A stretch of 64,000 nucleotides of DNA from an uncultured Gemmatimonadaceae bacterium. GTDB lineage: Bacteria; Gemmatimonadota; Gemmatimonadetes; Gemmatimonadales; GWC2-71-9. Below the pieces are notes generated by a model. That model was not told the origin of the DNA, did not search any database, and saw only the letters and a program-made list of their open reading frames with translations. Positions 1,438 to 59,715 of this stretch are shown one piece after another (position 1 is the first letter of the stretch; every line of letters begins with the position of its first letter). The translations under genes and the position numbers were made by a program. Location: positions 148,028 to 212,027 of the forward strand of contig CAZXRC010000002.1 in assembly GCA_964642475.1 (NCBI GenBank), read 5' to 3'.

Positions 1438-1501
1438 GGCCGTTGGCCGTTGGCCATTGGTCGTTGGCCGTTGGTAAGTGCCGACGGCCAATGGCCAACT
1501 G
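1438..1501. repeat. inverted tandem-heptamer hairpin, (GGCCGTT)5 versus AACGGCC-type arm
   Basis: Units GGCCGTT GGCCGTT GGCCATT GGTCGTT GGCCGTT at 1438-1472. A short spacer follows, then CCGACGGCCAATGGCCAACTG (1481-1501), complementary to units 2-4. The element fills the gap between convergent stops 1435-1437 and 1503-1505. Confidence 0.85.
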
Positions 1502-1502
1502 C

Positions 1503-1844
1503 CTACTTCACGACCTCCGCCTCCCCCGTCTCCACCCCGGCCGGCGCCGGTGCCTCGCTCACAGTCACGGCCTCGCCCTTGGCGGCGGACATCTCCCGGT
1601 CAACCTTGGCGATGGAGGCATCGAGCGTGTCCATCCGGACCATCCAGGCATCGATCTCAAGCGAATCGACCACCGTGCCGCGGTCGCGACGGTGAACCAG
1701 GTAGCCCAGCTTCCTGGCCGCCTCGTCCCGTTCCCGCGCCAGCCGAAAACGCTCGATTTGGAGCCGGCCCTCGTCCAGGGCCTGTTGCGCCCGCTTGCCG
1801 AAGGTCTCGAGTTCGCTGTTGAGCCGATCCAGGATCCCCGCCAT
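1503..1844 (-). CDS. hypothetical coiled-coil-like protein (113 aa)
   Basis: It is the only long ORF in this gap and has strong G/C third-position bias. The sequence is charged and heptad-like (LDRLNSELETFGKRAQQALDEGRLQIERFRLARERDEAARKL). No family recognised. Confidence 0.55.
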   Translation of the reverse strand: MAGILDRLNSELETFGKRAQQALDEGRLQIERFRLARERDEAARKLGYLVHRRDRGTVVDSLEIDAWMVRMDTLDASIAKVDREMSAAKGEAVTVSEAPAPAGVETGEAEVVK

Positions 1845-1903
1845 GTGCCCCTCGGAGTTGAGTGCTGGGACAATCTAACGGCTTGGCGGCGGGGCGTGTT
1901 TCA

Positions 1904-2035
1904 GGTTGGGCCGTTGGCTGGTTGGCGCGTCAGCCGCAGGGCACTGGCTGCACCCGGGAAAGCAAAACCCTCCGCGATCAGGCGCGGAGGGCAGCTTCAC
2001 ACGGGGTCAGCGAGCGGCTAACGGCCAACGGCCGG
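1904..2035. repeat. GGCCGTT-family inverted arms bracketing the rpmA terminator
   Basis: Left arm GGTTGGGCCGTTGGCTGGTTGGCG (1904-1927). Right arm GCGGCTAACGGCCAACGGCCGG (2014-2035). About 70% complementary by hand. The right arm overlaps the last codons of rpmA. Confidence 0.6.
1959..1991 (-). terminator. intrinsic terminator of rplU-rpmA
   Basis: On the minus strand: CCCTCCGCG-CCTGAT-CGCGGAGGG (9-bp perfect stem, 1968-1991) followed by TTTTGCTTT (1959-1967), 27 nt downstream of the rpmA stop. Confidence 0.75.
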
Positions 2036-2281
2036 ATACACCGAGACCTTCATCCGCTTCTTGTCCTTGTGCTCGAACTTCACCACGCCATCGACCGTCG
2101 CGAAGATGGTGTGGTCGGTGCCCAGCCCGACACCCTTGCCGGGATGGAACTTGGTGCCGCGCTGGCGGACGATGATGTTGCCGGCGATGACCTGCTCCCC
2201 GCCGTAGCGCTTTACCCCCAGAAACTGGGGATTGGAATCGCGGCCGTTGCGGCTGGAGCCGACGCCCTTCTTATGTGCCAT
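2018..2281 (-). CDS. rpmA: 50S ribosomal protein L27
   Basis: [48 protein letters not shown].. is the canonical L27 sequence. Confidence 0.97.
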
Positions 2282-2288
2282 GGTATCC

Positions 2289-2606
2289 TCAGCCGACCGT
2301 AACGTCGGTAATGCGGACTTCGGTGTACTTCTGCCGATGCCCGGTCTTCCGGCGATAGTTCTTCCGCCGCTTGAACTTCCAGACGTAGATCTTGACGCCC
2401 TTGGCCAGGCCGACCACTTCGGCGGTGACCTTGGCGCCCTTTACCAGCGGCGTGCCGGCGGAGACGCTGGTGCCATCCGAGGCGAGCAGCACCTCGTCGA
2501 ACGTGAGGGTGCTGCCGGGCTCCGCGTCATCGATGAGCGGAATCTGGAGCGTGGTGCCCTTCTCGGCGCGGAACTGCTTCCCCGCGGTGCGGAAGATCGC
2601 GTACAT
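2289..2606 (-). CDS. rplU: 50S ribosomal protein L21
   Basis: [17 protein letters not shown]...[23 protein letters not shown] is canonical L21. It lies 7 nt upstream of rpmA. Confidence 0.97.
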
Positions 2607-2739: not shown

Positions 2740-4362
2740 TCAAGCCACCGCGTAAAGTTCGGTAACGTCCCTGCCCCCCGGCCGACTCATGAGCCGGAAC
2801 TCGTCCAGCCGCATCATCGGGTCATCCCGAAGCTCCAGCTCCAGGCCGGTGGCCTTACCCAGCGTGGGGATAAGCTTCGGCTCCTCCTCCAGAAGGTACA
2901 GCGCCACCTCGGGATGGAGCCGGACCGAGAGCTGCCGCTCCCGCCGTTCCCGCCCGGCCCGCTTGAGTGAACGCTCCAACCGCCGGGCCACGACCTCGGG
3001 GGTAAAGACCCGGCCGGTGCCGCTGCAGGCGGGACATTCGGTGGTCATCGAATGCCATAGCGAGGGGCGGACCCGCTGCCTGGTCATCTCGATCAGCCCG
3101 AGTTCCGACACGGCAAATGCCTTGGTCCGCGCCCGGTCCCGCCCCAGGTGGGTTCGGAGCTCCTGGAGGACCCGGTCGCGGTTGGCCCGGGTTTCCATGT
3201 CGATGAAATCGCACACGATGATTCCACCGATGTCGCGCAGCCGGATCTGCCGCGCGACCTCGCGCGCGGCCTCCAGGTTGGTCTTCAGGATGGTCTTCTC
3301 GGGGTCCTTCTTGCCGGTGTACCGCCCGGTATTCACATCGATCGAGACCAACGCCTCGGTCGGCTGGATGATGATGTAGCCGCCGGTGGGCAGGTCGCAG
3401 CGGGCCTTGAAGAGGTCCCGAATCTCGTTCTCGATGTCGAACTTGTCGAACAGGGGGACGGGCTCGTTGTACAGATTGACCCGGCCCACCAGTTCCGGAT
3501 CGACCTGCTTGAGGTATCCCTCGATCTCGTTGAACAGCTCCTTCGAGTCGACATGCAACGCATCGACTTTGGCGCTGAAGAGATCGCGGATAATCCCGCG
3601 GGTGAGCGAGGTCTCCCGCTGCACCAGCGCCGGGGCCCGGACGAAGTTCTTCTTGCGGTTGATCTTGCGCCAGATGTTGAGGAGCGACTCGACTTCGTGC
3701 TTGAAGTGCTCCTCGGTGACGTCCTCGGCCACGGTGCGGACGATCATCCCACCCTGGTCCTTGGGGAGCATGCCGCCCACCATGTCGCGCAGCTTGGAGC
3801 GAAGCTCCTTGCTCTCGATCTTGCGGCTGACGCCGACCTTCGAGGCGAAGGGCATGTAGACCAGGAACCGCCCCGGCAGGGAAATCTGCGCCGTGACTCG
3901 GCAACCCTTGGTGCTGATCGGCTCCTTGGTGACCTGCACCAGCAGGGTCTGGCCCTTCTTGAGCAGGTCGGAGACATCCGGCAGCGCGCGACGGGACTTC
4001 ACCTCCCGCTGTCGCGGCTCTCCGTTCCCCGGGCGCCCCCGCCCCTTCCCCCGCCCGCTCTCGACGTCGGGTTCGGCCTCCGCCTCCTCGAACGCCTCAT
4101 CCCCCTCCTCGCCGGTCGGTTCCTCGTCCTCCTCGGGCTCGAGGAGGTCGGAGGCGTGGAGGAAGGCGGATTTTTCCAGCCCGATGTCAACGAAGGCTGC
4201 TTGGATCCCGGGAAGGACTGCCTCGACCCGGCCGAGGTAGATGTCGCCGACGATGCGGCGGTGGTCCGGCCGGTCGATGAGGAGTTCGACCAGTCGGTCG
4301 TCCTCCAGAATGGCCACGCGGGTTTCCCGCTGGCTTCCGTTGATGAGAATCTCGCGCTTCAC
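2740..4362 (-). CDS. rng: RNase E/G-family endoribonuclease (RNase G-like, 540 aa)
   Basis: S1-like N-terminus (GDIYLGRVEAVLPGIQAAFVDIGLEKSAFLH). Core motifs GGYIIIQPTEALVSIDVNTG and NLEAAREVARQIRLRDIGGIIVCDFIDM. Zn-link CPACSGTGRV. GTG start 4362. Confidence 0.9.
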   Translation of the reverse strand: MKREILINGSQRETRVAILEDDRLVELLIDRPDHRRIVGDIYLGRVEAVLPGIQAAFVDIGLEKSAFLHASDLLEPEEDEEPTGEEGDEAFEEAEAEPDVESGRGKGRGRPGNGEPRQREVKSRRALPDVSDLLKKGQTLLVQVTKEPISTKGCRVTAQISLPGRFLVYMPFASKVGVSRKIESKELRSKLRDMVGGMLPKDQGGMIVRTVAEDVTEEHFKHEVESLLNIWRKINRKKNFVRAPALVQRETSLTRGIIRDLFSAKVDALHVDSKELFNEIEGYLKQVDPELVGRVNLYNEPVPLFDKFDIENEIRDLFKARCDLPTGGYIIIQPTEALVSIDVNTGRYTGKKDPEKTILKTNLEAAREVARQIRLRDIGGIIVCDFIDMETRANRDRVLQELRTHLGRDRARTKAFAVSELGLIEMTRQRVRPSLWHSMTTECPACSGTGRVFTPEVVARRLERSLKRAGRERRERQLSVRLHPEVALYLLEEEPKLIPTLGKATGLELELRDDPMMRLDEFRLMSRPGGRDVTELYAVA

Positions 4363-8487: not shown

Positions 8488-9066
8488 ATGCCCCTGCCCA
8501 ATTCGCCCCCCAATCACGAGGTCACCCAGCTCCTGCAGCGGCTCCGCGCCGGCGATGCCGCCGCCCGGGAGCGCCTGTTCCCACTGGTGTACGAGGAGTT
8601 GAGGCGGGTGGCCCGGCGAGCCCTCCGCCGGGAGCGGGTGGACCACACCCTCCGTCCAACCGAACTGGTACACGAGGCCTTCCTGAAGCTCGGCAGTGCC
8701 GACGGGCCCTGGCAGGATCGGGCCCACTTCCTGGGGGTAGCGGCCAGGGCCATGCGCCAGATCCTGGTCGACCACGCCCGGCGGCGGCTCGCCGGGAAGC
8801 GGGGCGGCGGGGTGGTCGCCACCACCCTCGAAGACGTGCGGGCCGACTCCGGGCTCCCACCGGAGGATCTGCTGGCGCTGGACGCCGCGCTCGACCGGTT
8901 GGAGCGGCAGGACCCGCGCCTCCGCGCCCTGGTGGAGTATCGCTTCTTCGGCGGGCTGACCGACAAGGAAATCTCCGAGCTGCTCGAGATCAGCGAGCGG
9001 ACGGTGAATCGTGACTGGGCCCGTGCCCGCGCCTGGCTGCACAAGGAAGTGTATTCCGCCTCATGA
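8488..9066 (+). CDS. ECF-type RNA polymerase sigma factor (kinase-associated subfamily)
   Basis: ATG 8488 lies inside track ORF 7591..9066. Region 2 (LVYEELRRVARRALRRERVDHTLRPTELVHEAFLKL) and the region 4 HTH (GGLTDKEISELLEISERTVNRDWARARAWL) resemble the subfamily I remember as TIGR02999/ECF43-like. Confidence 0.88.
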   Translation: MPLPNSPPNHEVTQLLQRLRAGDAAARERLFPLVYEELRRVARRALRRERVDHTLRPTELVHEAFLKLGSADGPWQDRAHFLGVAARAMRQILVDHARRRLAGKRGGGVVATTLEDVRADSGLPPEDLLALDAALDRLERQDPRLRALVEYRFFGGLTDKEISELLEISERTVNRDWARARAWLHKEVYSAS

Positions 9067-15949: not shown

Positions 15950-15977
15950 GTTCCGAGTTCCGAGTTCCGAGTTCCGA
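15950..15977. repeat. solo tandem heptamer array (GTTCCGA)4
   Basis: Four perfect GTTCCGA units fill most of the 40-nt gap between stop 15986-15988 and GTG 15945. No inverted partner lies nearby. Confidence 0.9.
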
Positions 15978-15985
15978 GGGGACGG

Positions 15986-17745: not shown

Positions 17746-20612
17746 TGTCCGATCGGAGTCACGGGAGAAGGAAATCCTGCTTCACGAGTCCAGGCCCGCT
17801 GGCCCTCAGGCACCACCACGATCCCCAGCGGGAAGAACGCCTCGCCCAGGGGCAGCTCCGGCTCGCGCCACGGCACGGTGGCGGTCACCTTCTGGCCGGC
17901 GCCCACCGTGACCCGCGGACCCGGCAGCTGACTCACGTGGGCGGAGTCGGCGTAGAGCCGGATCGACAGGAGGGCGGTCCACCGCTGGCCCGCGGCGCCG
18001 TCCGCGAACCCCGGAAAGAGCCCCACTTCGGCCTCCCGGCGGCCGGAGGCGCCGCCGGGAAAGTCCACGTGCACCCGGCCGAAGGCATAGTTGAGCGGCG
18101 ACTGTCCCAGCTGGCGGCCGCTGTCATCGAAGACGGTAAGGCCGAAATCGGTGAAGCGGGACCACTGGGTCCGATCCATGCTCACGTCCACCACCGCATG
18201 CACCGCCCAGGGCGGCAGTGCGAAGCGCACGCGCTGAGTCTCGGAGCCTCGCGCCACCACCCGGGACGTCCGTTCGGCGCCCACCAGGACCACGAAGGGC
18301 TCGGTCTCGAGCGTGGATTCCGTCAGGTTCACGAGGTCGACGGCGACCCCGTCGCGACCGCGGGTGGCATCGATCCGGAAGGGACTCCGGTTCACCTCGA
18401 TCGTGGCCGAGGCGCCGTCGAGTGGCGGGGCTACGGCCACCGCCTCGTACAGGCCGGGGACGACATCGCGGGCATCGACCGACATCGTGGCGGCCTGCTC
18501 GCCCGACCCGGCCCCGAACCCGTTGTCCTCGCGGTAGGGCTGCCCGCCCGGCTCATGCAGGTAGGCCAGCACCTGCTCCCCGGGCCGGCCGGCGGCGAAG
18601 GTTACATCGAACGGACGTCCGGCGGTGGCCTCGAAGAAGACCCGCCCCTCCTGCCCCGCCTCGATCGCGCCGAGGTCGGCCGAAAAATCGCTCCCGGTCC
18701 GGGGCACGACCACGGTATTGACCAGCCGGAAGACCGGCCCGAGCAGCGTGTCCGCCGTCCACCCGGTCACCACTGCGGTGTAGACCCCCGGCCGCACCAG
18801 CGCCCGCGCCTGATAACTCAGGGCGATTCGGTTGGCCCCGCTGCGGAGCCGAACCGTGGCGGGGGCCCGGAGCCAGGAGGCGCTGGAGCGAAGCGTGTAA
18901 GCCGAGTCGCCGCTGGTGCCGGGCAGGGTGACCTCGAACTCCTGCAGGGTATCAGCCGCCGAGGCCAGGCCACCAGCCCGGAAGGCCGCGGTGTTCCCAT
19001 GCCCCTCGGCCCGGACGGCGATCTCGGGCACCGGCCGATCGGCCTTGAGCCAGCGCCAGGCGGCGTCGACATCGGCCAGCCCGGTCCCCTCGTCCAGATA
19101 GGTCTCGGTACCGACCGGGCGGGCGGTGACCATCAGGGCCTGGCGGATCTGACGGGCCTCGATCGGCCGCTTCTCCTGGACCAGCGCCGAGACCAGCAGC
19201 GCCGCGAGGCCGGCGGCGTGGGGCGAGGCCATGCTGGTCCCCCCCTTCTGCTCGTTCCCGATGCTCCAGTTCGGCACCGTCGAGTAGGCCATTCCGGGCG
19301 TCACGATATCGGGCTTGGCGACCTCACCGCCGCGGGAACTGAAGTAGGCGATCGGATCGCCGCCCTTACCCGAGGCGCCGAGAAAGACGGTGGGGAAGGT
19401 AGCTCCGACGGTCAACGCCCGGTTGGCCGACCCGGGGAACCCCATGGTGGAGAGCCCCGGCCCGTCGTTCCCGGCGCTGATGGCGAATACCACGTCGGGA
19501 TGCAGCGCCAGCACCGAGTCGATCAACTCATCCATCCGGGCGCTTCCCTCCACTTCATTGCCGACGCCGAAGCTCATGTTGAGCACCAGCGGGAGGCGCC
19601 GTTCGGCGGCAAAGCGGATCGCATACTCCATGGCCGCGAACATGCTGCCGGTCGTGGAGATCCCGCCCTGGGCGTTGTTGGCGATCTTGAGACCGAGGAG
19701 GAATGCGCCCGGCGCCACCCCGTCGAACCCCTTGACTCCATAGATGTCGTTGGCGGCGGCAATTCCGGCGACGTGAGAGCCGTGGGCGCTGGTGTCGAAG
19801 AAGAGATCGAGGCGGGGCTCGCCTTTCTCCTCGCGGAAGTTGGCGGCCAGGCCCAGCGGCGCGGGGCGCCCGGGGCCGTGCCAGCCAAAGACCTCGCGGG
19901 CGACGAGGAAGTCATGGACCGGCTTCTCGTTGGCGAAGCTCCCGTCGCCATCGGTATCGGCGAACAGGACCCAGCCATCACTGGCTCTCGCCACGACCAG
20001 CGCGAGGGTATCGGCGTCATCCTGGTCGCCATTCAAGTCGCCGGCCGGCGGCGATCCCAGCGGGATCTCGGCCATGGTCCCGGCCCACATCTCGCCCTTG
20101 AGGGCCAGTGCCCGGAGCCGCCCCGCCCCGGCGAAGGTCCGACCGCCGATCACCAGCTGGTCGCCGCTGGGAGCGATCCGTGCCAGCGGGACCGCGCCCT
20201 CGCCGGAGAAGTCCCGCAGGTCGAGCACCTTCCGCTGGCCGGCGGAGGTGGTGGTCAGACCCGGCACCGACGGATCGAGCCCGCTGTCGAGGATGCCGAT
20301 GAGGACGCCGCGGCCATCCCACTCGGGATGGGCCTGGAGAAAGCGGTCAACCCCGGTCGATTTGAGTGGCATCCATCCGCGAGCGTAGGCCTCCGCAGGA
20401 GGGAGCACCCGCTGCCCGGGACCATCGCCACCGGCGGGCGCGGGAGTGGCAACGGACGGCGAAGGTGCGGGCGTGACCGGTGCGGCAGTGCCACCCCCGC
20501 ATCCTATGAGCACGAGCGGGAGAACCGCCTTCCACAGATGACACAGACGATGCACAGACCTGCTCCGGCTCACTCGAGCCTTCTGAACCCCATTCGCCCC
20601 ATCTGTGTTCAT
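17742..20612 (-). CDS. S8 (subtilisin-family) serine peptidase, large, lipoprotein-like N-terminus
   Basis: Triad contexts GILDSGLD (Asp), [12 protein letters not shown] (His) and [17 protein letters not shown] (Ser). A ~200-aa insert lies between Asp and His, as in TPP-II-like S8 members. LVLIGCGG is lipobox-like. The start is ATG 20612 or GTG 20555. The stop overlaps the AtuA-family ATG. Confidence 0.9.
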
Positions 20613-20627
20613 CTGTGTCTTCTGTGG
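20532..20627. repeat. inverted short-tandem-repeat hairpin (CACAGA-type units, period 9-11)
   Basis: CCACAGATGACACAGACGATGCACAGACC (20532-20560) versus CCCCATCTGTGTTCATCTGTGTCTTCTGTGG (20597-20627). About 24 of 29 positions are complementary, with one indel. The loop holds a small GGCTC/GAGCC hairpin. The element spans the S8 start region. Confidence 0.7.
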
Positions 20628-20636
20628 ATGCAGCGT

Positions 20637-22720: not shown

Positions 22721-23422
22721 TCACTCGGTTGGGGTCGGTACCGGCACGACCCGAGCCAGCAGCAGATCGGCGACGGCACTCACGCTCGCGGCGGTACGGA
22801 CGTCCCGCCCACCGTGTTTCCCCAGCGGATCGAGCAGAATCACGTCGAGACCAGCCCGGCGGGCCCCGACCACGTCGATCTCGTAGAGGTCGCCGACGTA
22901 CAGCGCCTCGGCGGGCGCGAGCGCGAGGCGGGTCAACGCGGCCTCGAAGATACGCGGGTCCGGCTTCTCGAACCCGACCCGCTGGGAGTCGATGACGAAC
23001 TCGAAGCGCGAGAGCAGGTCCGCGTCGGCCAGGGCCTCTTCCGCGCGTCCATCGCTGTTGCTGATGACCGCCAGCCGGTAGCCCGCGGCCAGCAGCCGGT
23101 CGAGCGCGGGGGCGGTCCGGGGATCGACCCCGCTCCAGAGGTGCTTCTCGCCGTGGAGGGCGTAGAGCGTGCTGCGCACCACCTCACCCTGTTCCGGGGG
23201 GACGCCGGCCAGCCGAAAGAGGGTCTCGAGATAGCGCGAGGCCCGCTCTCGGTCGGTGCCATCCTGCCGTTCCATGACCAGTGCGGCCTCGCCGGCCTGG
23301 CTCGCCAGCAGCTCCCCGGTGAGGGGGGCGCCCGTCGCCGCGGCCACCCGAGCGGCCAGGCGGGGGTAGTCGAGGGCGACGAGGGTATTACCGGCGTCGA
23401 AGAGAACCGCCTTGAGGCTCAC
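22721..23422 (-). CDS. HAD-superfamily hydrolase
   Basis: Motif [10 protein letters not shown] (DxG variant), motif II VISNSD, and distal [27 protein letters not shown] 23422 overlaps the upstream stop (GTGA 23419-23422). Confidence 0.85.
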
Positions 23423-24574: not shown

Positions 24575-24668
24575 AGTCACGAGTCATGAGTCACGAGTCG
24601 AGCGTCATGGCGCCGGGTCGGGGATCCGCTGAACGGCCCGCGACTCGCGACTCGTGACGCTCGACTGG
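24575..24668. repeat. inverted tandem-heptamer hairpin (AGTCACG-type versus CGCGACT-type)
   Basis: AGTCACG AGTCATG AGTCACG AGTCGAG CGTCATG (24575-24609) versus CGCGACT CGCGACT CGTGACG CTCGACT (24639-24666). About 80% complementary. It fills the gap between stop 24670-24672 and ATG 24570. Confidence 0.85.
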
Positions 24669-24669
24669 T

Positions 24670-30995: not shown

Positions 30996-31000
30996 GAGGT

Positions 31001-31077
31001 GGAGAGTCGGGAGACCAAGTCGGGAGTCGAGAGTCGGCGCACCGTCTACACCGGGTGACTCTCGACTCTCGACTCTT
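31001..31077. repeat. inverted tandem-heptamer hairpin (GAGAGTC-type versus GACTCTC-type)
   Basis: GGAGAGTCGGGAGACCAAGTCGGGAGTCGAGAGTCGG (31001-31037), a 17-nt loop, then GTGACTCTCGACTCTCGACTCTT (31055-31077). It starts 6 nt after the ntrC-type stop, in terminator position. Confidence 0.8.
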
Positions 31078-31080
31078 TCA

Positions 31081-31160
31081 CGCCCCACGCTCGCCTACCT
31101 TCCCCCACGCCAATCCGCCCCGCCACTCTGTCCGCCGCGGCGCCACTCTGTCCCGTCCCA
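31081..31160 (+). promoter_or_regulatory. candidate enhancer (UAS) repeats upstream of the sigma-54 promoter
   Basis: Two pairs of direct repeats have 20-nt periodicity. CCCCACGC occurs at 31083 and 31103. CGCCACTCTGTCC occurs at 31121 and 31141. They lie 45-115 nt upstream of the -24 element. Confidence 0.3.
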
Positions 31161-31838: not shown

Positions 31839-34649
31839 ATGTTTCGATCCGTCGTCCGCACGCTTGCCCCCGGCGCCCTCCTGGCGCTCCTCGCGGTGGT
31901 GGCCCGCCCGGTCCAGGCTCAATCCGGCAGCGTGTCGGGGCAGGTCTCCGACAGCACCGGGGGGGCGGTGGCCGGGGCCATCGTCACGGTAGACAAGACC
32001 AGCCTCCGCGCCACCACCAGCGCGAGCGGCCGGTATGTGCTCCGCGGCGTGCCCGCCGGGAGCCAGGTCATCCGGATCCGGGCCATCGGCTTCCTGCCGG
32101 CCAGCGCGACGGTCGAGGTGGCCGGAGACCGGACCCAGGACTTCGCGCTCGTGCGCTCGCCGGTGGAGCTGGCCCCGATCGACATCGTGGTCGGTTCCCG
32201 CGGCCGGCACACCGCGGCCGAGGAGTTGGCGGTTCCGGTGGACGTGTACACCGCGGAGCAGATTCAGCAGCAGGGGACCACCGAAACCAGTCAGATCCTC
32301 CAGAGCCTGTCCCCCTCGGTGAACTTCCCCCGTCAGAGCGTGACGGACGCGAACGACATCATGCGGCCGTTCACGCTGCGGGGGCTCTCGCCCGACCATA
32401 CCCTGGTGCTGGTGAACGGCTGGCGGCGTCACCAGATGGCGGTGCTCAATACCTTCGCCTACGGGATGGGCGCCGGTTCGACCGGGGTCGACATGAACGC
32501 TATCCCCGGCGGCGCGGTGGAACGGATCGAAGTACTGCGCGACGGGGCCGCGGCCCAATACGGCTCCGACGCGATCGCCGGGGTGGTGAACGTCGTGCTC
32601 AAGGAGGGGAAGTTCGCGCCCTTCCTGAGCACCAACGCCGGACAGTACGTGACCGGCAAGGGCTACAAGAACGACGGAACCACGGTCGACATGAACGGCG
32701 GGCTGGGGATCGGGCTGGGGCGCGGCTCGCTCGCGATCTTCGGCGAGTTCCAGCAGCGCGACCGGACCAACCGGGCCTGGGCCGATCCATTCCTGGTCGA
32801 CCGGGCCGGCAACGCCGATTCGATCAACCCCAAGACCGGCGAAGTGATCGTGAAGCGGAACAGTCTCCGCCAGCCGAACCTGCATTGGGGCGACGGGCTC
32901 GAGAAGGACGCGATGACGTTCGCCAACTTCCGGATGCCGCTCAACCCATCCGGGTCGAGCGAGGTGTATGCCTTCAGCGGCTACAGCCACCGGACCGGCA
33001 CCGGGAACGGCTACTGGCGCTACTTCGATGGGAACCGGAACTGGCCGGAGATCTACGCCGACGGCTTCCTTCCCGAGTTCCATCCCACGGACGAGGACTT
33101 CTCGGCCACCGGCGGCGTCCGCACCTCGGCCGGGGGCTGGGGCATCGATTTCGGCGGCTCCTACGGGGTGAACCGCTTCGACTACGATCTCGAGAACACG
33201 CTCAACGCCTCGCTCGGTCCCTGCCTGGTGACGGCCTGCGCCCCCGGCGCCGATGGGGTCCTGGGCACCGGGGATGACCCGGGGATTCCCAATCAGACCA
33301 GCTTCTTCGCCGGCCGGCTGCTCAAGCGGGAGACACTCGGCGCGCTGAACCTGGCGCGCTCGGTGAACGTGGGGCTGCCCGGGCCGCTCAACGTGGCGGT
33401 GGGCGCGGCGGTGCGGCGGGAACAGTTCAAGATCGAGGCGGGCGAGCGGGCCTCGTGGATCAACGGCAACCACCAGGCCCAGGACTCAAGCGGTCCGGCG
33501 CCGGGCGGCTCCTCGGTCTTCGGGGGATTCTCGCCGGGCGACGCGTCCGACCACAGCCGCACCAACTACGGCTTCTACGCCGATCTCGAGAGCAACCTCT
33601 CGAAGGACGTGCTGGCCAATGTGGCGGGTCGGTTCGAGAACTACAGCGACTTCGGGTCCCGGGTCTCCGGGAAGGCGGCACTCCGCTTCCAGCCCAACCG
33701 CCGGCTGGTCCTGCGGGGGGCGGCCAGCACCGGCTTCCGGGCTCCGGGGCTGGCCCAGAACTACTTCAGCCACGTCACCACGAGCTTCATCGCCGGCCAG
33801 CTGGTGGAGGTGGGCAACTTCCCGACCGACCACCCCGCCTCGAAGCTCTTCGGGGCCAAGCCGCTCCGGGAAGAGACGTCGCTCAACCTCAGCGCCGGCC
33901 TGGCGGTGACCCCGCGGGACAATTTCACGCTCACGCTCGACGTCTTCCACATCAAGATCAACGATCGGATCCTGCTGGGCGCCACCTTCGACGACGACAC
34001 CACGCTCGCGATTCTCGCGGCCAACGGTTTCACCGGCATCGGCGGCCTGCAGTACTTCACCAACGGCCTCGACACCAAGACCCAGGGCATCGACCTCGGC
34101 GCCAATCTCCGGGTGCCGGCCGGCGCGAGCGGGACCCTGACGTTCGATCTCGGCGTGAACTACACCAAGAACGAGATCACTCACATCGATCCCCTGCCGG
34201 CGATCCTGGCCAACTCGGACGAACCGGGGCTGATCGACTCGGTGACCTACATCGGCATTACCGAGGAGCGGCCCGACTGGCGCGGCACCCTCACCACCAA
34301 CTACGAGACCGGCCGGTTCCATGCCCTGGGCCGGGCCAGCTACTTCGGCAAGTTCTCTTCGGCCCAGCCGGGATTCTGCGACCTCTGCCGCGAGAACTAC
34401 GGCGCCAAGACGCTGTTCGATCTCGAAGTCGGGTACAATTTCAACCAGATCAAGGTCTCGGTCGGCGCCCGCAACCTCTTCGACACCTATCCCGATTCGC
34501 CGAAGTCGCTGCGAGACGTGGATGGCGCCGGCAGCACTTCGAAGGACTTCAACAACAACTTCGGGACCTTCCCCTGGGCGGCGGCATCGCCGTTCGGGTA
34601 TAACGGGCGGTTCCTGTACAGCCGGGTGGATTTGACGCTGGGATGGTAG
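31839..34649 (+). CDS. TonB-dependent outer-membrane receptor with N-terminal carboxypeptidase-regulatory-like domain
   Basis: Signal peptide, then GSVSGQVSDSTGGAVAGAIVTV..GRYVLRGVPAG (CarbopepD_reg-like), then a plug (IDIVVGSRGRHTAAE.., LRGLSPDHTLVLVNG, NAIPGGAVERIEVLRDGAAAQYGSDAIAGVVN). The barrel ends ..RVDLTLGW. Confidence 0.92.
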   Translation: MFRSVVRTLAPGALLALLAVVARPVQAQSGSVSGQVSDSTGGAVAGAIVTVDKTSLRATTSASGRYVLRGVPAGSQVIRIRAIGFLPASATVEVAGDRTQDFALVRSPVELAPIDIVVGSRGRHTAAEELAVPVDVYTAEQIQQQGTTETSQILQSLSPSVNFPRQSVTDANDIMRPFTLRGLSPDHTLVLVNGWRRHQMAVLNTFAYGMGAGSTGVDMNAIPGGAVERIEVLRDGAAAQYGSDAIAGVVNVVLKEGKFAPFLSTNAGQYVTGKGYKNDGTTVDMNGGLGIGLGRGSLAIFGEFQQRDRTNRAWADPFLVDRAGNADSINPKTGEVIVKRNSLRQPNLHWGDGLEKDAMTFANFRMPLNPSGSSEVYAFSGYSHRTGTGNGYWRYFDGNRNWPEIYADGFLPEFHPTDEDFSATGGVRTSAGGWGIDFGGSYGVNRFDYDLENTLNASLGPCLVTACAPGADGVLGTGDDPGIPNQTSFFAGRLLKRETLGALNLARSVNVGLPGPLNVAVGAAVRREQFKIEAGERASWINGNHQAQDSSGPAPGGSSVFGGFSPGDASDHSRTNYGFYADLESNLSKDVLANVAGRFENYSDFGSRVSGKAALRFQPNRRLVLRGAASTGFRAPGLAQNYFSHVTTSFIAGQLVEVGNFPTDHPASKLFGAKPLREETSLNLSAGLAVTPRDNFTLTLDVFHIKINDRILLGATFDDDTTLAILAANGFTGIGGLQYFTNGLDTKTQGIDLGANLRVPAGASGTLTFDLGVNYTKNEITHIDPLPAILANSDEPGLIDSVTYIGITEERPDWRGTLTTNYETGRFHALGRASYFGKFSSAQPGFCDLCRENYGAKTLFDLEVGYNFNQIKVSVGARNLFDTYPDSPKSLRDVDGAGSTSKDFNNNFGTFPWAAASPFGYNGRFLYSRVDLTLGW

Positions 34650-34713
34650 GCGGTCAGGCGGTCAGGCGGTCAGGCGGTCAGGTGGTCAGGTGGTCAGGTG
34701 GTCAGGTGGTCAG
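34650..34713. repeat. tandem octamer array (GCGGTCAG)4(GTGGTCAG)4, left arm of the four-helix-bundle cassette
   Basis: Eight contiguous 8-nt units start 1 nt after the receptor stop (34647-34649). The last unit contains the stop codon (34710-34712, minus strand) of the cassette gene. Confidence 0.95.
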
Positions 34714-35079
34714 GTCCGGAGGGTGCTTCGCCGCACCGAGGCGTACAAGCCCCAGACGGATCTGCCCGCCTGATCGCGTGTTCCTTCCAGCTGCTCCCAT
34801 AAGGTGGACGAGAGGTAACCAAGGTCTTTGGCGAGCCTCAAGAAGTACCCCACCTCAGCCAGAGAACCGTTGGCCATGTCCAGATAGCGACAGAACTCCC
34901 TTGAGCCCCTCTTTCGCGGAACCCTCGGTGATGTTGGCCGCGGCCGATACCGCCGCTCGCCGCGACTGCGATACCAAGCCAAACAGTTCTTCCCAAGGCC
35001 ACTTGGCCGATGCCTGGTAAATGGCAAGAACAAGCTGGTGACAGAGTTGCCAGGCGACGAAGCGCTCGTGAGGTGGCAT
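34710..35079 (-). pseudogene. four-helix-bundle protein gene (23S rRNA IVS protein / Avd-like family), frameshifted
   Basis: The N-terminal half sits in one frame (MPPHERFVAWQLCHQLVLAIYQASAKWPWEELFGLVSQSRRAAVSAAANITEGSAK). The C-terminal half sits in the +1 frame (RGSREFCRYLDMANGSLAEVGYFLRLAKDLGYLSSTLWEQLEG..). Together they give the family pattern FGL.SQ.RRAAVS...NI.EG...R.S..EF..FL..A.GS..E. The span is 370 nt, one nt more than a multiple of three. Confidence 0.8.
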
Positions 35080-35115
35080 ATCGCATCGTAACCCGAACCA
35101 TCGACACACGCACAA

Positions 35116-35163
35116 CTGACCGCCCGACCGCCTGACCGCCTTGCCGCCTGCCCGCCTCCCTAC
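35116..35163. repeat. degenerate inverted octamer array (CTGACCGC-type), right arm of the cassette
   Basis: CTGACCGC CCGACCGC CTGACCGC CTTGCCGC CTGCCCGC CTCCCTAC. The first five units are complementary to the left array at about 35 of 40 positions. The last unit contains the mgtE stop (35160-35162). Confidence 0.8.
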
Positions 35164-38901: not shown

Positions 38902-39401
38902 GCGAGTGCCTTCACGTAGCGCTCCTGCCGCCGCCACATCGCGGATCGGGTGCGGTGGGGACCTTCGGGGTGGTCATAGCCCAGAACGTGCAGTGTGCCA
39001 TGGACAACCAGCCGGATCAGCTCTTCCCGGGGAGAAATCCCCAGCGCCTGGGCGCCGCTCCGGGCCACGGCGGGGCAGACATACACGTCGCCCAGCAATT
39101 CGCCGTCCGGACCCGGCAGGGCGAAGGAAAGCACGTCGGTGGGAAGGTCATGGCCCTTCCACTCCTGGTTGAGCCTCCGCATCCGCGCGGGACCGAGGAA
39201 GGTGACCGAGATGGTCGCGCTCCGTTTCTCCCCCCGGAGCACTGCCCGCACCAGGCGTTGGACACTCGCGGGGGATAACGCGGTCCCCTTCCGACCGCCT
39301 GGCCTTGAAGGAACCCCTCGCGCCGAGTCGCGCTGCGCGCTCCTCCCGGCGCTCGGTCGCCGCCTGACCGCCCGACCTTCAGCCGTTCTGGTCCTCCGCA
39401 T
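38898..39401 (-). CDS. ybeY: rRNA maturation endoribonuclease YbeY
   Basis: LNQEWKGHDLPTDVLSFALPG and the zinc motif HGTLHVLGYDH. The Arg-rich N-terminal ~45 aa is partly encoded by octamer-repeat-like DNA, so the start is uncertain. Confidence 0.85.
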   Translation of the reverse strand: MRRTRTAEGRAVRRRPSAGRSAQRDSARGVPSRPGGRKGTALSPASVQRLVRAVLRGEKRSATISVTFLGPARMRRLNQEWKGHDLPTDVLSFALPGPDGELLGDVYVCPAVARSGAQALGISPREELIRLVVHGTLHVLGYDHPEGPHRTRSAMWRRQERYVKALA

Positions 39402-40329: not shown

Positions 40330-40337
40330 GTTCCTCA

Positions 40338-40414
40338 GTTCCGAGTTCCGAGTTCCGGGTTCCGGGTTCCGATTGCAGGGCATGAGTCCAGAGGAGGCAA
40401 CTCGGAACTCCGAA

Positions 40415-40415
<1 letters not shown>
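40338..40415. repeat. inverted tandem-heptamer hairpin, (GTTCCGR)5 versus TCGGAAC-type
   Basis: GTTCCGA GTTCCGA GTTCCGG GTTCCGG GTTCCGA TTGC (40338-40376) versus GCAACTCGGAACTCCGAAC (40397-40415). The right arm touches the aspS stop. The left arm ends 9 nt from the phoH ATG. Confidence 0.85.
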
Positions 40416-42180
<1,765 letters not shown>

Positions 42181-42745: not shown

Positions 42746-43834
42746 ATGGTTATTCTTCATCCCATGTCGACCACCCTCCTCGACCAGACCCCCAGCGAAG
42801 CCCGCCAGCTCCTCCTCGACTGGGCCTCGAGTCGGGGCCTCCCGGCCTACCGAGCCCGCCAGCTCCTGCCGCGGCTGTGGGAGCGACCGGTCGCAAGCTG
42901 GCAGGATGCCACCGAGCTGCCGGCCGCGCTCCGGACCGAGCTCCAGCGGGAGCATCCCTTGCCCCGTCTCACGCTCGAAACGGTGCAGCACTCGGCCGAC
43001 GGGACCCGGAAGTATCTCTGGCGTCTTCACGACGGAGAGCTGATCGAGTCGGTCCTGATCCCCTCCGGGACTCGGAAGACTCTCTGCATCTCCTCCCAGG
43101 CCGGGTGCGCCCTCGGCTGTGTCTTCTGCGCCACCGGCCGGATGGGATTCCGGCGGAACCTCACGGCCTTCGAGATCGCCGGCCAGGTTCGGGAACTGGT
43201 CCTCGCCAACCGGGCCGACAAGCCCAGCAACATCGTCTTCATGGGGATGGGGGAACCGCTCCTCAACTGGCCGGCGGTTGACGTGGCGCTCACGATCCTC
43301 AACGACCCAGCGGGCCTCGGGATCGGCGCCCGGCACATCACCATCTCGACCGTCGGGATCATTCCGGGGCTGCAGGCGCTGGCGGCGCGGCCGGAGCAGT
43401 TCCGGCTCGCCATTTCTCTCCACGCCCCCACCAGCGCCCGCCGACTCACGCTCATGCCGATCGAAAAGAAGTACCACCTCGACGAGGTGCTCCGGGCGGC
43501 GGGGGCGTTCAAGAAGCGGATCACCTTCGAATACGTCCTCATCGCCGGAAAGAACGACACCGATGAGGACGCCGATGAGCTGGTGGGGTTGGCCCGACGC
43601 ATGGGCGCGATGGTGAACATCCTGCCGCTCCACCCCGGAGGGGCGCCGGGCCTCACGCCCACCGCGCCGCTCGCCATCCGGGATTTTGCCGACCGATTGC
43701 GAGCCCGCGGGGTCGAAGCGGTGGTGCGCCGGAGCCGCGGCCTCGACATCGCGGCGGCCTGCGGCCAGCTCAGGGTGGAGACCGAACGAAAGCGGAAAAC
43801 GGTCGCGGGCCGCGGGTCAGGGGTCGAGGGATGA
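42746..43834 (+). CDS. rlmN: 23S rRNA/tRNA A2503 methyltransferase RlmN (radical SAM)
   Basis: CISSQAGCALGCVFCATG (CxxxCxxC), GMGEPLLN, ISTVG. Start is ATG 42746 or ATG 42764. Confidence 0.92.
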   Translation: MVILHPMSTTLLDQTPSEARQLLLDWASSRGLPAYRARQLLPRLWERPVASWQDATELPAALRTELQREHPLPRLTLETVQHSADGTRKYLWRLHDGELIESVLIPSGTRKTLCISSQAGCALGCVFCATGRMGFRRNLTAFEIAGQVRELVLANRADKPSNIVFMGMGEPLLNWPAVDVALTILNDPAGLGIGARHITISTVGIIPGLQALAARPEQFRLAISLHAPTSARRLTLMPIEKKYHLDEVLRAAGAFKKRITFEYVLIAGKNDTDEDADELVGLARRMGAMVNILPLHPGGAPGLTPTAPLAIRDFADRLRARGVEAVVRRSRGLDIAAACGQLRVETERKRKTVAGRGSGVEG

Positions 43835-43877
43835 CCGTCGCGGTCACCCCGAGCCCTCCCCCCGGACCCGCGACCTC

Positions 43878-53012: not shown

Positions 53013-53054
53013 ATTCGCTCCGTGAAGTCCGTCGTCTCGAGCGCAGGGCCTATC

Positions 53055-53126
53055 TCATCCCGAGCGCAGCGAGGGATCTACTCAGGGCCGGCTAGATCCC
53101 TCGGGCGCTCCGTGCCCTCGGGATGA
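53055..53126. repeat. two-tier palindromic (REP-like) element between mcl and mtkA
   Basis: Outer stem TCATCCCGAG (53055-53064) / CTCGGGATGA (53117-53126). Inner stem CGAGGGATCTA (53070-53080) / TAGATCCCTCG (53093-53103). Both are perfect, with an asymmetric internal loop. Confidence 0.75.
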
Positions 53127-53138
53127 CATCGTTTCGAT

Positions 53139-57224: not shown

Positions 57225-57781
57225 AAGCGGACCGTCGGATCGGGGAGAGCCCAGCCGGCCAGCACCGCACGGCTGATGCGATAGCGGGCCACGTCCCGCA
57301 GCACCGCCTGGGAATCGCGGGGAAAGCGCTGGGCCAGCTCCGCCAGCTCGGGGCGGTGATACGGGCGGCCCGGCTCGAGATAGTCGGCGCAGTAGAGCAC
57401 CCGCCCCACCAGGTCCCACTCGGCCAGCCCCATGCTATGGTAGCGCACCGCGTCGAGCACCCCGCGGTCGGTCTCGCCATCGGCCTTGGCGCGGGCCGCG
57501 CTGGCGGGTCCGTGGCGGAACTCGGCGGGTCCCGGCGCCGAGGGGGCCCATTGTTCCAGCTCGGGGGCCGGCGCGTCCCGCAGCGCATCGTGCAACCAGA
57601 CGGCCCGCAGCCAGCGGTTGCGCTCGTTATCCGGTACGCCCATCTCTTCGGCCCAATGCGCCACCAGGCCGGCCACGCGGATGATGTGCTCCATCCGCTC
57701 GGGGCTGACCACCGCCCAGGTGGGGAGTGTGGGGCGGAGGCCCGAGGGTGGCGTGGTACGCGGTTCGCCGGCGGTGGTCAT
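57191..57781 (-). CDS. HD-domain phosphohydrolase (YqeK-like)
   Basis: RMEHIIRVAGLVAHWAEEMG..RAVWLHDALRD carries the H...HD signature. ATG 57781 overlaps the panC stop (ATGA). Confidence 0.75.
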   Translation of the reverse strand: MTTAGEPRTTPPSGLRPTLPTWAVVSPERMEHIIRVAGLVAHWAEEMGVPDNERNRWLRAVWLHDALRDAPAPELEQWAPSAPGPAEFRHGPASAARAKADGETDRGVLDAVRYHSMGLAEWDLVGRVLYCADYLEPGRPYHRPELAELAQRFPRDSQAVLRDVARYRISRAVLAGWALPDPTVRFWNSLLPPAAG

Positions 57782-58632
57782 GCGAACACTCGGCCGAGGA
57801 TGTGATTGTCGATGAGTCGGGTCTGGCCCACCCGCCCGGCCAGCGTCAGGATGGTGCCGGGCTCGGCCCGGGTCACCGGCAACAGCCGGTCCGGATCCAC
57901 TGCGGCGATGTAGTCCGGTGCCAGGCCGGGAAACCGCCGGCACTCGTCCTCCATCAGCGCCACCAGCCGGCCGGCGTCCTGATCCCCGCCCCGCCAGGCC
58001 CGGTCGGCGGCCCTGAGGGCGGCGGAGAGCCCAAGCCCCTGGGCCCGCTCCGCCGCAGTGAGATACGCATTTCGGCTGCTCAGGGCCAGTCCGTCCGCCT
58101 CCCGCACAGTCGGCGCCACCGCCACGTCGACCGGGAAGTCCAGGTCCCGCACCAGCTGCCGGATCAGCGTCGCCTGCTGGATGTCCTTCTGTCCGAACAC
58201 CGCGACATCGGGCTCGACCAGGTGGAAGAGCTTGGTGACCACCGTGAGGACGCCGGCGAAGTGCCCCGGGCGAACCGCCCCTTCGAGCCGATCGGCGGAG
58301 GAGCCGGGGACCACCCGGATCTCCGCCTCGGGGGCATACATCGCCTCCACCGTCGGGGCAAAGAGCACATCGACGGACCGGCGGGCGGCGAGGGCGGCAT
58401 CATGGGCCAGGTCCCGGGGGTAGCGGCCGAAATCCTCCCCGGGCCCGAACTGGAGCGGATTGACGAAAACACTCAGCACCACCGCGTCGGTCCGGCGCCG
58501 TGCTTCGTCCACCAGGGAAAGGTGCCCCTCATGCAGGGCCCCCATTGTGGGTACCAGGCCGACGCGATGCCCCACCAGCCGGGCCTCGGCGAGCCAGGCG
58601 CGCAGCTCGGGGATGGTGGTGAACTCATGCAT
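57778..58632 (-). CDS. panC: pantoate--beta-alanine ligase
   Basis: VGLVPTMGALHEGHLSLV, SVFVNPLQF and VAVFGQKDIQQ. Start moved to ATG 58632, because the track ORF's extra 33 codons are hairpin-repeat sequence. Confidence 0.93.
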   Translation of the reverse strand: MHEFTTIPELRAWLAEARLVGHRVGLVPTMGALHEGHLSLVDEARRRTDAVVLSVFVNPLQFGPGEDFGRYPRDLAHDAALAARRSVDVLFAPTVEAMYAPEAEIRVVPGSSADRLEGAVRPGHFAGVLTVVTKLFHLVEPDVAVFGQKDIQQATLIRQLVRDLDFPVDVAVAPTVREADGLALSSRNAYLTAAERAQGLGLSAALRAADRAWRGGDQDAGRLVALMEDECRRFPGLAPDYIAAVDPDRLLPVTRAEPGTILTLAGRVGQTRLIDNHILGRVFA

Positions 58633-58633
58633 G

Positions 58634-58743
58634 TTGGCGGGCCGTTGGCCATTGGCCGCTGGCCGATAGCCGCTGCTCCTTGGGAGGAAGGATTCGGGGA
58701 AGCGGACCATTCGTCTGAGGCCTACGGCCAACAGCCAATGGCC
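58634..58743. repeat. inverted tandem-heptamer hairpin, GGCCGTT family
   Basis: GCCGTTG GCCATTG GCCGCTG GCCGATA GCC (58641-58671) versus GGCCTACGGCCAACAGCCAATGGCC (58719-58743). About 80% complementary. It runs from 2 nt past the panC ATG to the panB stop codon. Confidence 0.85.
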
Positions 58744-59552
58744 TATTCAAAACTGTGCTCCCTGGTCGGATACCGCCCCGCCCGCACGTCGGTCGCGAAG
58801 GCGCCCGCGGCGGCCCGCACCGTGGCCGCGAGATCGGCGTAGGTCTTGAGAAACCTGGGGTTGAACCCCTCGTTGAGCCCCAGCATATCGTGAAGCACCA
58901 GGACCTGCCCATCGCAGCCGGGGCCAGCGCCGATACCGATCGTCGGTGCGCCGATCGATTTGCTCACCGCCTCCGCCAGCGGCGCGGGGACCAGCTCCAG
59001 CACGATGGCACAGGCGCCGGCGTCCTCCAGGAATTTCGCGTCCGAGCGCACCCGGTCGGCGGCGGCCCGATCCCGACCCTGCACCCTGGGCCCGCCCAGC
59101 TGGTGGATCGCCTGGGGCGTGAGGCCCAGGTGGCCCATCACCGGGATGCCGACGCGCACCAGGGCCCGCACCGTCTCGGCCATCGGCTCCCCCCCCTCGA
59201 GCTTTACCCCGTGGGCTCCGGTCTCCTGCAGGACCCGGCCGGCGTTGCGAATGGCCTCCGCCACCGAGACCTGGTAGGTGAGAAAAGGCAGGTCGACGAA
59301 CACCAGCGAGCGGCCGGCGCCCCGGACCACCGAGGCGGCGTGGTAGATCATCTGGTCGAGCGTGGCGCTCAGGGTGTTCGCTTTCCCGGCGAGGACCTGG
59401 TTCACGGAGTCGCCCACCAGCAGCACGTCGACCACCCCGTCGAGCAACCGCGCGAACAGCGCGTCGTAGCAGGTGAGCACGGCGATCTTCTCGCCGCCGC
59501 GCTTCTTCTCGCGCAGGTCGGGGATGGTCAGCGGCTTTGGGTCGTCAGCCAT
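58743..59552 (-). CDS. panB: 3-methyl-2-oxobutanoate hydroxymethyltransferase
   Basis: IAVLTCYDALFARLLD, LLVGDSVNQVLAG, GAHGVKLEGG and VMGHLGLTPQ. Confidence 0.95.
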   Translation of the reverse strand: MADDPKPLTIPDLREKKRGGEKIAVLTCYDALFARLLDGVVDVLLVGDSVNQVLAGKANTLSATLDQMIYHAASVVRGAGRSLVFVDLPFLTYQVSVAEAIRNAGRVLQETGAHGVKLEGGEPMAETVRALVRVGIPVMGHLGLTPQAIHQLGGPRVQGRDRAAADRVRSDAKFLEDAGACAIVLELVPAPLAEAVSKSIGAPTIGIGAGPGCDGQVLVLHDMLGLNEGFNPRFLKTYADLAATVRAAAGAFATDVRAGRYPTREHSFE

Positions 59553-59715
59553 AGAGTTCCGGGTTCCGAGTTGCAGCTGGACTAGTCGCGGCGAGTTCCG
59601 TCACCGGCACCGAATAGCCTGAGATGGGAACCGAGTTCCGAGTTGCGGTCCCTCCAGTCGCGGCGAAACGCGGCGCCGCCGGCACCGACTCCTCGGAACT
59701 CGGAACTCGGAACTC
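59553..59715. repeat. composite element: GTTCCGA-family inverted arms enclosing a ~72-nt direct duplication
   Basis: The left arm GAGTTCCGGGTTCCGAGTTGC (59554-59574) pairs with (TCGGAAC)3TC (59693-59715) at 19 of 21 positions. Inside, 59563-59613 and 59635-59688 are diverged direct copies sharing GTTCCGAGTTGC, AGTCGCGGCGA and CCGGCACCGA. Confidence 0.8.

Follow-up and report, generated by a model that had tools for sequence, protein, structure and literature searches.

The 64-kb stretch analyzed here (the window; contig CAZXRC010000002.1 of an uncultured Gemmatimonadaceae bacterium, with a G+C content of ~69%) carries at its gene boundaries a series of palindromic elements built from two inverted arrays of a 7-10-nt unit, and one of these, E7, encloses a gene for a four-helix-bundle (4HB) protein of the 23S rRNA intervening sequence (IVS) protein family. 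We propose, with a probability of about 0.55, that the elements belong to an IVS-like class of palindromic short tandem repeats that colonizes gene boundaries, and that the 4HB cassette is the gene-carrying form of this class. A preliminary description of the window had listed solo derivatives of an IVS-like cassette among the possible origins of its gene-junction repeats, and this suggestion is strongly reinforced by the finding that the 4HB gene of the window is bracketed by arrays, as it is in 40 of 43 homologous loci. The cassette of the window has the following parts.

E7 left arm, 34644..34715, no strand assigned: nine (G)GYGGTCA octamers (9.1 copies by Tandem Repeats Finder, TRF)
4HB gene, 34710..35078, minus strand: PF05635/TIGR02436, 23S rRNA IVS protein family; frameshifted
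E7 right arm, 35116..35163, no strand assigned: five to six CTGACCGC octamers (TRF 35116-57, 5.2 copies)

The left arm begins at the TAG stop of a TonB-dependent receptor gene and includes the stop codon of the 4HB gene, and the right arm ends at the TAG of mgtE on the reverse strand. Folded as RNA and scored against dinucleotide shuffles (200 per element, 100 for E7), the 531-nt cassette has a z of -5.0, with a ~50-bp terminal stem formed from its two arrays and the 4HB gene enclosed. A 1-nt frameshift near 34900-34915, in the stretch CGCGAAAGAGGGGCTC, divides the gene into two halves that match homologues in adjacent frames; it reflects either decay into a pseudogene or an error in sequencing. 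The frameshift-corrected protein of 122 aa scores 93.6 bits against TIGR02436 (cut-off 24), and even the frameshifted open reading frame (ORF) reaches 34.2 against the Pfam PF05635 cut-off of 33.8. It has 1375 homologues, the best with 64-66% identity at 100% coverage, and its closest solved structure is XCC0516 (PDB 2GSC, E 4.5e-18), described as a homopentamer of four-helix bundles (PMC4990558). The family is abundant (7,757 hits at E <= 1e-10 among 8,000 candidates scored) and has invariant polar residues (E31, Q38, S45, N49, E52, S72 and E75), and the function of PF05635/TIGR02436 proteins is not known (PMC4990558). An alignment of the Gemmatimonadales-type 4HB proteins found no viral relatives among viral contigs.

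Homologous 4HB loci were taken from metagenomes (L081-L105), Gemmatimonadales genomes (L106-L115 and L128-L132), cyanobacterial and Gemmatirosa plasmids (L116-L123) and Xanthomonadales (L124-L127). A gene was counted as bracketed if an array of period 7-11 with at least 2.5 copies had a reverse-complement dimer on the opposite side of the gene. Inverted tandem arrays bracket the 4HB gene in 40 of the 43 loci scored (L081-L123 plus the window, without L105), compared with 0.5-0.9% of random 370-nt intervals, and the three misses are either near-misses or cut by a contig end. Further bracketed 4HB genes are found in L128, Xanthomonas, Stenotrophomonas and Dyella. The arrangement is polar: in ~18 of 19 informative loci (hand tally), the coding strand has the G-rich version of the unit upstream of the gene. 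The units themselves differ from cassette to cassette.

Window: GCGGTCAG
L107: GGCGGCAA
L081-101: RGCGGTT
L109: GCGACGGTA
L112: GACGGTCAAA
L128: GACGGGCA
Nostoc: TCAGGAG
Anabaena 90: CAGGTGA, 20 copies
N. edaphicum: GGGAGTA
Xanthomonas: GGGAATC

Unit family follows the similarity of the 4HB proteins. Proteins of L117 and L118 (76% identical) both have TCAGRAK units, those of L119 and L120 (72% identical) have TTAGCT units despite different host orders and gene contexts, and those of Stenotrophomonas and Dyella (68% identical) have GGGAAT units; likewise, the protein group L084/L101/L114 goes with CGGTT units and the group L109/L112/L128 with GACGG units. In L109, L112 and L128, gene-less hairpins near the cassette use the unit family of the cassette, and L109 has four to five such GCGACGGTA hairpins within 8 kb. 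More generally, unit families recur at unrelated junctions and across genomes, and within arms blocks of identical unit variants stand side by side.

How the arms change can be followed in a syntenic relative, L106/L107 (GCA_964608625.1 / GCA_046327735.1), which has most flanking genes in common with the window at 79-93% amino-acid identity and two small genes at 69-75%. The orthologous cassette has GCGGTCAG/CTGACCGC arms in the window and GGCGGCAA/CCGCCTTG arms in L107, with one L107-type unit persisting in the 5' arm of the window cassette. A sigma-54 activator junction has GAGAGTC/GACTCTC in the window and CGTTCCT/AGGAACG in L107, and in both genomes the hairpin follows the TAG immediately, with the downstream flank conserved. 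The preliminary description had proposed looking for compensatory changes and for unit-number polymorphism. The two arms have been altered in concert at the cassette and at the activator junction, and unit number differs between near-identical strains, as expected of slippage: L109, L110 and L111 encode an identical protein between arrays of 3.7, 5.9 and 5.7 copies. Among 21 orthologous cassettes compared by eye, arm pairing is imperfect at variable unit positions, in a comparison where differences in unit number make alignment unreliable. The unit variant at the PhoH/YbeY junction is, in each genome, that of the genome's own cassette type, the L107 hairpin being made of GGCGGCAAG units. A junction ~700 nt upstream of the orthologous cassette has a GGCTATC/CCGATAG hairpin in L086, L088, L096 and L085 (~3165-3230) and a GGACGGTAAG/TACCGTCCCT hairpin in L098 (3147-3238); the GGCTATC unit is also found in the Gemmatimonadales locus L013.

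The association of the 4HB gene with arrays extends to cassettes inside operons. XCC0516, the 4HB gene of Xanthomonas, lies inside a GGGAATC array pair whose 3' array ends at the accC start, and a 4HB gene occupies the accB-accC operon in Xanthomonas, Stenotrophomonas and Dyella alike. Cassettes inside conserved operons (L116, L120, L122, L123, L124-L127, L102 and L128) are located between cas10 and cmr3, between cas6 and cas4 (twice, with unrelated units), between the beta and alpha subunit genes of ribonucleotide reductase (RNR), between accB and accC in Xanthomonadales, between gspG and gspE in L128 and, judging from the translation, apparently between mraZ and rsmH in L102. PF05635 genes in cas loci have been published as functional partners of cas genes; their array-bracketed position suggests that they may instead be insertions at gene junctions. 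A comparison of the 60 nt upstream of Gemmatimonadales-type 4HB genes (window 35079-35115, minus strand; L084, L087, L091, L101, L107, L109, L112, L114, L128 and L132) revealed a TGGTT-like motif ~40 nt 5' of the ATG and a TANNNT motif, often TATGCT, ending 6-8 nt before it. Together these look like a promoter of the gene's own that would give a leaderless mRNA.

Arrays in the window were called with TRF, and arm complementarity was determined by inverted-repeat search. TRF found 14 arrays of period 7-8 with 2.7-9.1 copies, 13 of them at gene boundaries and the remaining one (228-250) within an ORF; the arrays of E4 are weaker (period 9-11, 2.0-2.8 copies). They fall into GGCCGTT, GTTCCGA, GAGTC-type, GCGGTCAG and CACAGA-type unit families. 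Under a strict criterion the window contains five close inverted array pairs in its 64 kb, where comparison loci totaling 1.2 Mb have 1.2 per 100 kb, and a manual count gives 10-11 pairs. The elements other than E7 are as follows.

E1, 1438..1501, no strand assigned: array of five GGCCGTT units (TRF 1438-1474, 5.3 copies) and inverted partner; dG -46.6, z -6.3
E2, 1904..2035, minus strand: GGCCGTT-type arms at 1904-1927 and 2014-2035 (TRF 2015-2033), 3' of rpmA (L27); z -5.9
Terminator-like hairpin in the E2 loop, 1959..1991, minus strand: G+C hairpin 1968-1991 with U-run 1959-1967 (minus strand)
E3, 15950..15977, minus strand: solo array, four UCGGAAC units on the mRNA strand (TRF 15950-15978, GTTCCGA, 4.1 copies, 100% matches); z +1.75, no hairpin
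E4, 20532..20628, minus strand: CACAGA-type 9-11-mer arms (TRF 20537-59 and 20600-26, weak, 2.0-2.8 copies); z -5.2
E5, 24575..24669, minus strand: GAGTC-type heptamer arms (TRF 24575-24607 and 24639-66); z -3.8
E6, 30996..31090, plus strand: GAGAGTC/GACTCTC arms directly 3' of the sigma-54 activator TAG (TRF 31002-36 and 31057-76); z -3.6
E8, 39291..39379, minus strand: degenerate, directly oriented GGCGGTCAG-type units 3' of the PhoH stop; z -1.1
E9, 40337..40417, minus strand: GTTCCGA arms from the AspRS TAG to the PhoH ATG (40329) (TRF 40337-72, 5.1 copies); z -3.3
E10, 58634..58743, minus strand: GGCCNNN-type arms from the panB TAG to the panC ATG (58632) (TRF 58640-75); z -3.9
E11, 59553..59717, minus strand: GTTCCGA arrays from the folK TGA to the panB ATG (59552) (TRF 59554-72 and 59692-715); z -3.0
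E12, 43801..43875, no strand assigned: GGGTCNN hairpin with four units, absent from the preliminary description; dG -60, z -7.0

Ten of the 11 loci originally listed are thus genuine short-tandem-repeat arrays and nine of them fold as inverted pairs (z -3.0 to -6.3), with at most one shuffle per element matching the native fold (E1, E2, E4-E7 and E9-E11). The solo status that had been implied for 15950-15977 agrees with its lack of a fold, while 39291-39379, taken earlier for solo copies, forms no hairpin and consists only of degenerate, directly oriented units. Arm complementarity, estimated by hand at 70-90%, is 79-95% at the six loci listed by the inverted-repeat search. Stop-to-stop ORF coverage proved unusable as a gauge of intergenic space because ORFs continue through the arrays, which contain no stop codons. 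All identifiable genes of the window are housekeeping genes, its panB product, for which an exact look-up gave no record, has at most 72% identity to counterparts in Gemmatimonadales metagenome-assembled genomes (MAGs), and a search of the whole window against Rfam at the gathering threshold returned no rRNA and no other family.

The elements had been described as filling gaps between genes, and they do lie at gene boundaries, although some arms overlap coding ends. E1 occupies the 65-nt gap between the convergent stops of an amidohydrolase gene (TAG 1435-37) and an ORF at 1503..1844 (minus strand), E12 lies at the convergent junction of a radical-SAM gene and a metallophosphoesterase gene, E3 takes up the 40-nt gap that separates the AtuA-C stop from the GTG start of an enoyl-CoA hydratase gene, and E5 is located between the TAG of methylmalonyl-CoA mutase and the ATG of a baeRF1-like gene 5 nt away. 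Among the overlaps, the right arm of E2 codes for the last codons of L27 and its TAG stop, the C-terminus PAVGR* being derived from GGCCGTT units; the 3' arm of E4 comprises the probable GTG start (20555) and signal-peptide N-terminus (MHRLCHLW...) of a subtilisin-like lipoprotein; and E8, at the PhoH/YbeY boundary, may partly fall within the ybeY ORF. As first noted, arrays begin 0-10 nt past the upstream stop or overlap it, and in co-directional junctions they end 1-10 nt ahead of the next start codon. The earlier statement that they are not simply terminators also holds: the tandem-arm stems have no trailing U-run and are therefore not canonical intrinsic terminators, the only terminator-like hairpin being that inside the E2 loop.

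In the window, TAG makes up 10 of the 14 stop codons that adjoin arrays and 2 of the 30 others (p 2e-5). The bias recurs in L107, L109, L112, L114 and L128, where TAG accounts for 13/27 array-adjacent stops and 5/47 others (p 5e-4 for TAG) and TAA for 6/27 and 5/47, respectively; genes away from arrays mostly end in TGA. Convergent cases have TA or TAG at both ends of the element, which is indistinguishable from the neighbors' own stop codons. With regard to features of MITEs (miniature transposable elements with inverted repeats), inverted arms are present and the internal sequence has no conservation by eye.

Comparison with relatives indicates that the elements are insertions or expansions at junctions that are otherwise tight. 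The folK-panB and panB-panC junctions of ~35 Gemmatimonadales loci measure 0-30 nt and have no hairpin, with the exception of L013, whose panB-panC junction carries a hairpin of four GGCTATC and four CCGATAG units. A hidden Markov model scan of 80 panB loci found no 4HB genes, and the hairpins there are therefore gene-less. The enoyl-CoA hydratase and AtuA-C genes overlap in L112 and are parted by the 40-nt GTTCCGA array in the window, and conversely a 4HB cassette between the RNase G and acyl-CoA dehydrogenase genes is present in L112 and absent from the window. In L107, mgtE and the cassette are separated by an Acyl_transf_3 gene (8671-9904) that has no counterpart in the window, where the mgtE stop (35160) abuts the array directly, suggesting a rearrangement with its breakpoint at the array. 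A deletion that starts within the 3' array and reaches into the end of the convergent neighbor gene distinguishes the near-identical contigs L082 and L083, and is either array-associated or an assembly difference.

We envisage an element of the proposed IVS-like class as a pair of inverted arrays of a 7-10-nt unit with a center that varies, from a few bases through a host terminator hairpin to, as in E7, a complete 4HB gene with its own promoter-like sequence. The arms would evolve by slippage while being kept complementary and homogenized within a genome. The 4HB gene and its arms would spread as a unit, and the gene-less hairpins would be non-autonomous relatives, much as insertion sequences are accompanied by MITEs, or RAYT transposase genes by REPIN repeats. 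The elements may persist because a position exactly between stop and start does little harm. On transcripts, their 25-50-bp stems could be substrates of RNase III by analogy with rRNA IVSs, and cutting would excise the cassette or cleave a polycistronic mRNA at the junction. Stems beginning within ~10 nt of a stop could also hinder the terminating ribosome, an effect that has reportedly been seen with stop-proximal repetitive extragenic palindromic (REP) elements in E. coli.

Several observations weigh against this proposal. The independent cassette loci number roughly 19, fewer than the 43 counted, because many of the loci are orthologous. No mobility enzyme is evident, there being no transposase, integrase, reverse transcriptase or RAYT among the ~45 proteins of the window. 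Within the window, the unit family of the cassette differs from those of the other hairpins. No 4HB remnants were detected in gene-less loops by tblastn of 240 4HB proteins against the window and the Gemmatimonadales loci, and the loops of same-family hairpins have no resemblance by eye, no alignment having been run, so that the hairpins are no more than putative descendants of cassettes. Sense and antisense folding energies and G.U pairs have no strand asymmetry, and nothing in the sequence is specific to a function at the RNA level, such as the RNase III/E processing or start-site occlusion suggested in the preliminary description.

As the main alternative, it is conceivable, if doubtful, that the arrays are binding sites of the 4HB protein, a pentameric ring of which might recognize, on RNA or DNA, its cognate units, which typically number 3-6 per arm. 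In that case the gene would lie between its own sites, and gene-less arrays would be its regulon or would be maintained or mobilized by the protein, as in RAYT/REPIN systems, TRAP or heptad-binding repressors. Such a role would fit the universal bracketing of the gene, the G-rich unit upstream of it (~18/19 loci), the same-family hairpins around cassettes, the use of one unit variant per genome at both the cassette and a distant junction, the invariant polar residues, the homopentameric structure of XCC0516 (PMC4990558) and the retention of the gene between accB and accC across Xanthomonadales. The co-variation of unit family and protein similarity also favors it but is equally explained by joint descent of gene and arms, and further difficulties are that the window copy is frameshifted while its arrays are intact, that no gene cognate to the window's other unit families lies within the 64 kb and that array lengths range from 2.5 to 20 units, with no fixed five. 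The notion that the hairpins are local functional RNA elements (mRNA stabilizers, processing sites, factor-dependent terminators or translational-coupling devices), arising by slippage in place and selected junction by junction with the 4HB gene as an unrelated passenger, appears unlikely to us. It accommodates the exact fit between stop and start codons, the replacement of sequence with retention of structure at the orthologous activator junction, the terminators within E2 and within an L112 hairpin, and the Shine-Dalgarno-like GAGGA outside the stem in E9. Independent local origin would not, however, lead one to expect unit families that recur at unrelated junctions and in different genomes; there is no sense-strand bias, most relatives have 0-30 nt at the corresponding junctions, and cassette polarity together with protein/unit co-variation argues against a random landing of the gene.

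We consider it improbable that the elements are mere mutational by-products, in which slippage and template switching at small hairpins lengthen stems that have neither mobility nor function. Unit-number polymorphism, adjacent blocks of identical variants within arms, arms flanking pre-existing terminator hairpins and the lack of strand bias all agree with such an origin, and polymerase slippage has been given as the cause of the bacterial excess of heptamers (Mrazek 2007, as cited in PMC4679880). It leaves unexplained why one gene family is almost always enclosed, why units recur across loci and genomes, why two close relatives have unrelated units at an orthologous junction, and why TAG stops are favored. 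An assembly or sequencing artefact is hardly credible. Repeats can break or misjoin short-read assemblies, many of the homologue contigs are short, and the L082/L083 deletion lies inside an array; but the same architecture recurs in independent assemblies (MAGs, isolates and finished plasmids) of several phyla, at orthologous positions and with intact flanking reading frames, so that the arrays, for which the preliminary description had allowed an artefactual origin, are not the product of assembly. Integron attC sites, CRISPR, retrons and diversity-generating retroelements (DGRs) were rejected because there is no integrase, spacer structure or reverse transcriptase.

Among known systems, the heptameric short tandemly repeated repetitive (STRR) sequences of cyanobacteria had been named as a resemblance, which stands insofar as both have intergenic tandem units of heptamer class and fails in that the published STRR consensus units (CCCCAGT, TTGGTCA and CAACAGTCA) are not matched. 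Inverted short-tandem-repeat arrays had been thought undescribed, which is not the case: Xanthomonas genomes each have 70-75 convergent pairs of GGGAATC heptamer arrays that can form stem-loops and are 89-93% intergenic and near the upstream ORF, and the lengths of these and of the Nostoc GGGGAYT repeats differ between relatives (Rehm et al. 2015, PMC4692102). The elements of the window are alike in their ~7-nt tandem units, ~90% intergenic location near the upstream ORF, inverted pairing and variable length, but several unit families coexist in one genome, pairs are the rule rather than a minority, and the units, of 7-10 nt, are mostly not G-quadruplex-forming. The main text of that report has no mention of XCC0516, accB/accC, a 4HB link, a TAG association or concerted change between loci (PMC4692102), and no earlier description of the gene/array association was found in the literature searched, key papers included. 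Inverted tandem arrays were thus already known, and their link to the 4HB gene appears to be new.

The 23S rRNA IVSs with a PF05635 ORF (Leptospira, Coxiella and the Xanthomonas-type S23p) likewise have a long terminal stem enclosing the 4HB ORF, as in E7, and the Coxiella IVS has in its stem region a strain-dependent number of tandem GACAGAT heptamers, at the first of which RNase III cuts (PMC4990558). The elements of the window differ in being located between protein-coding genes, not in rRNA, and mostly without an ORF. With REP sequences, bacterial interspersed mosaic elements (BIMEs) and REPINs with their RAYTs they have in common numerous extragenic palindromes at gene junctions, stop-proximal hairpins and a single gene flanked by the repeats that are dispersed over the genome. 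In place of a conserved 20-40-nt palindrome, however, the arms are tandem arrays of short units; only the 7-10-nt unit is common to the copies, loops and arm lengths differing by eye, and the enclosed gene encodes a 120-aa four-helix bundle and not a Y1 transposase, the window containing no RAYT. The TAACTGA heptamers of Beggiatoaceae, Cyanobacteria and Bacteroidetes, proposed as binding sites for translational regulators (MacGregor 2015, PMC4679880), resemble E3 and the 3' arms in being intergenic, in 2-6 copies and ending a few nucleotides before starts, but are almost always direct and solo (one inverted among 170 sets), with a single unit sequence (PMC4679880). The DGR accessory protein Avd (PF22296/PF05635 relatives) has a homologous four-helix-bundle fold, and several 4HB homologues give weak matches to the bAvd model; unlike a DGR, the window has no reverse transcriptase and no template or variable repeats.

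Heptamer tandem repeats have reportedly remained an oddity since the STRR reports of 1990 and a repeat survey of 2007, with no explanation offered beyond slippage. It is possible, though we would not count on it, that the 4HB "IVS protein" and the tandem-heptamer arrays constitute one widespread, unrecognized genetic system comparable to RAYT/REPIN. If so, each 4HB paralogue would recognize its own unit family and maintain, mobilize or regulate it, and gene-less hairpins of the same family would sit at gene boundaries and in rRNA helices. PF05635 would thereby gain a function, and cyanobacterial STRRs, the bacterial heptamer excess, the Xanthomonas GGGAATC repeats and rRNA IVSs would have a common account. 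The occurrence of 4HB genes and heptamer arrays together, nearly without exception, in three phyla makes one question out of two open ones. For annotation it accounts for 4HB genes wedged into conserved operons (cas, acc, dcw and RNR), which should not be taken for functional partners of their neighbors, and tractable hosts exist in Xanthomonas, with its 4HB gene in the accB-accC operon, and in Nostoc/Anabaena.

A few further features of the window deserve mention. The baeRF1-like gene that starts 5 nt past E5 (23419-24570, minus strand) belongs to the bacterial archaeo-eukaryotic release factor family 10/2/3. E11 has an apparent internal direct duplication of ~80 nt, with GAGTTCC units, AGTCGCGGCGA and CCGGCACCGA read from the sequence, and looks more like a compound of two neighboring copies than like a single simple hairpin. 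The array at 228-250 consists of CTGACCGA/CTGACCGC units, which belong to the E7 family, and lies within the part of the amidohydrolase ORF (43..1437) that codes for the N-terminal signal-peptide region. A non-tandem palindromic repeat, GTCATYCCGAGG...CCTCGGGATGA, occurs in the window (53052-53129; z -2.3), in L107 (3416-3540) and in L132 (~1290-1340), and is a REP-like family located at other gene junctions and distinct from the tandem-arm hairpins.

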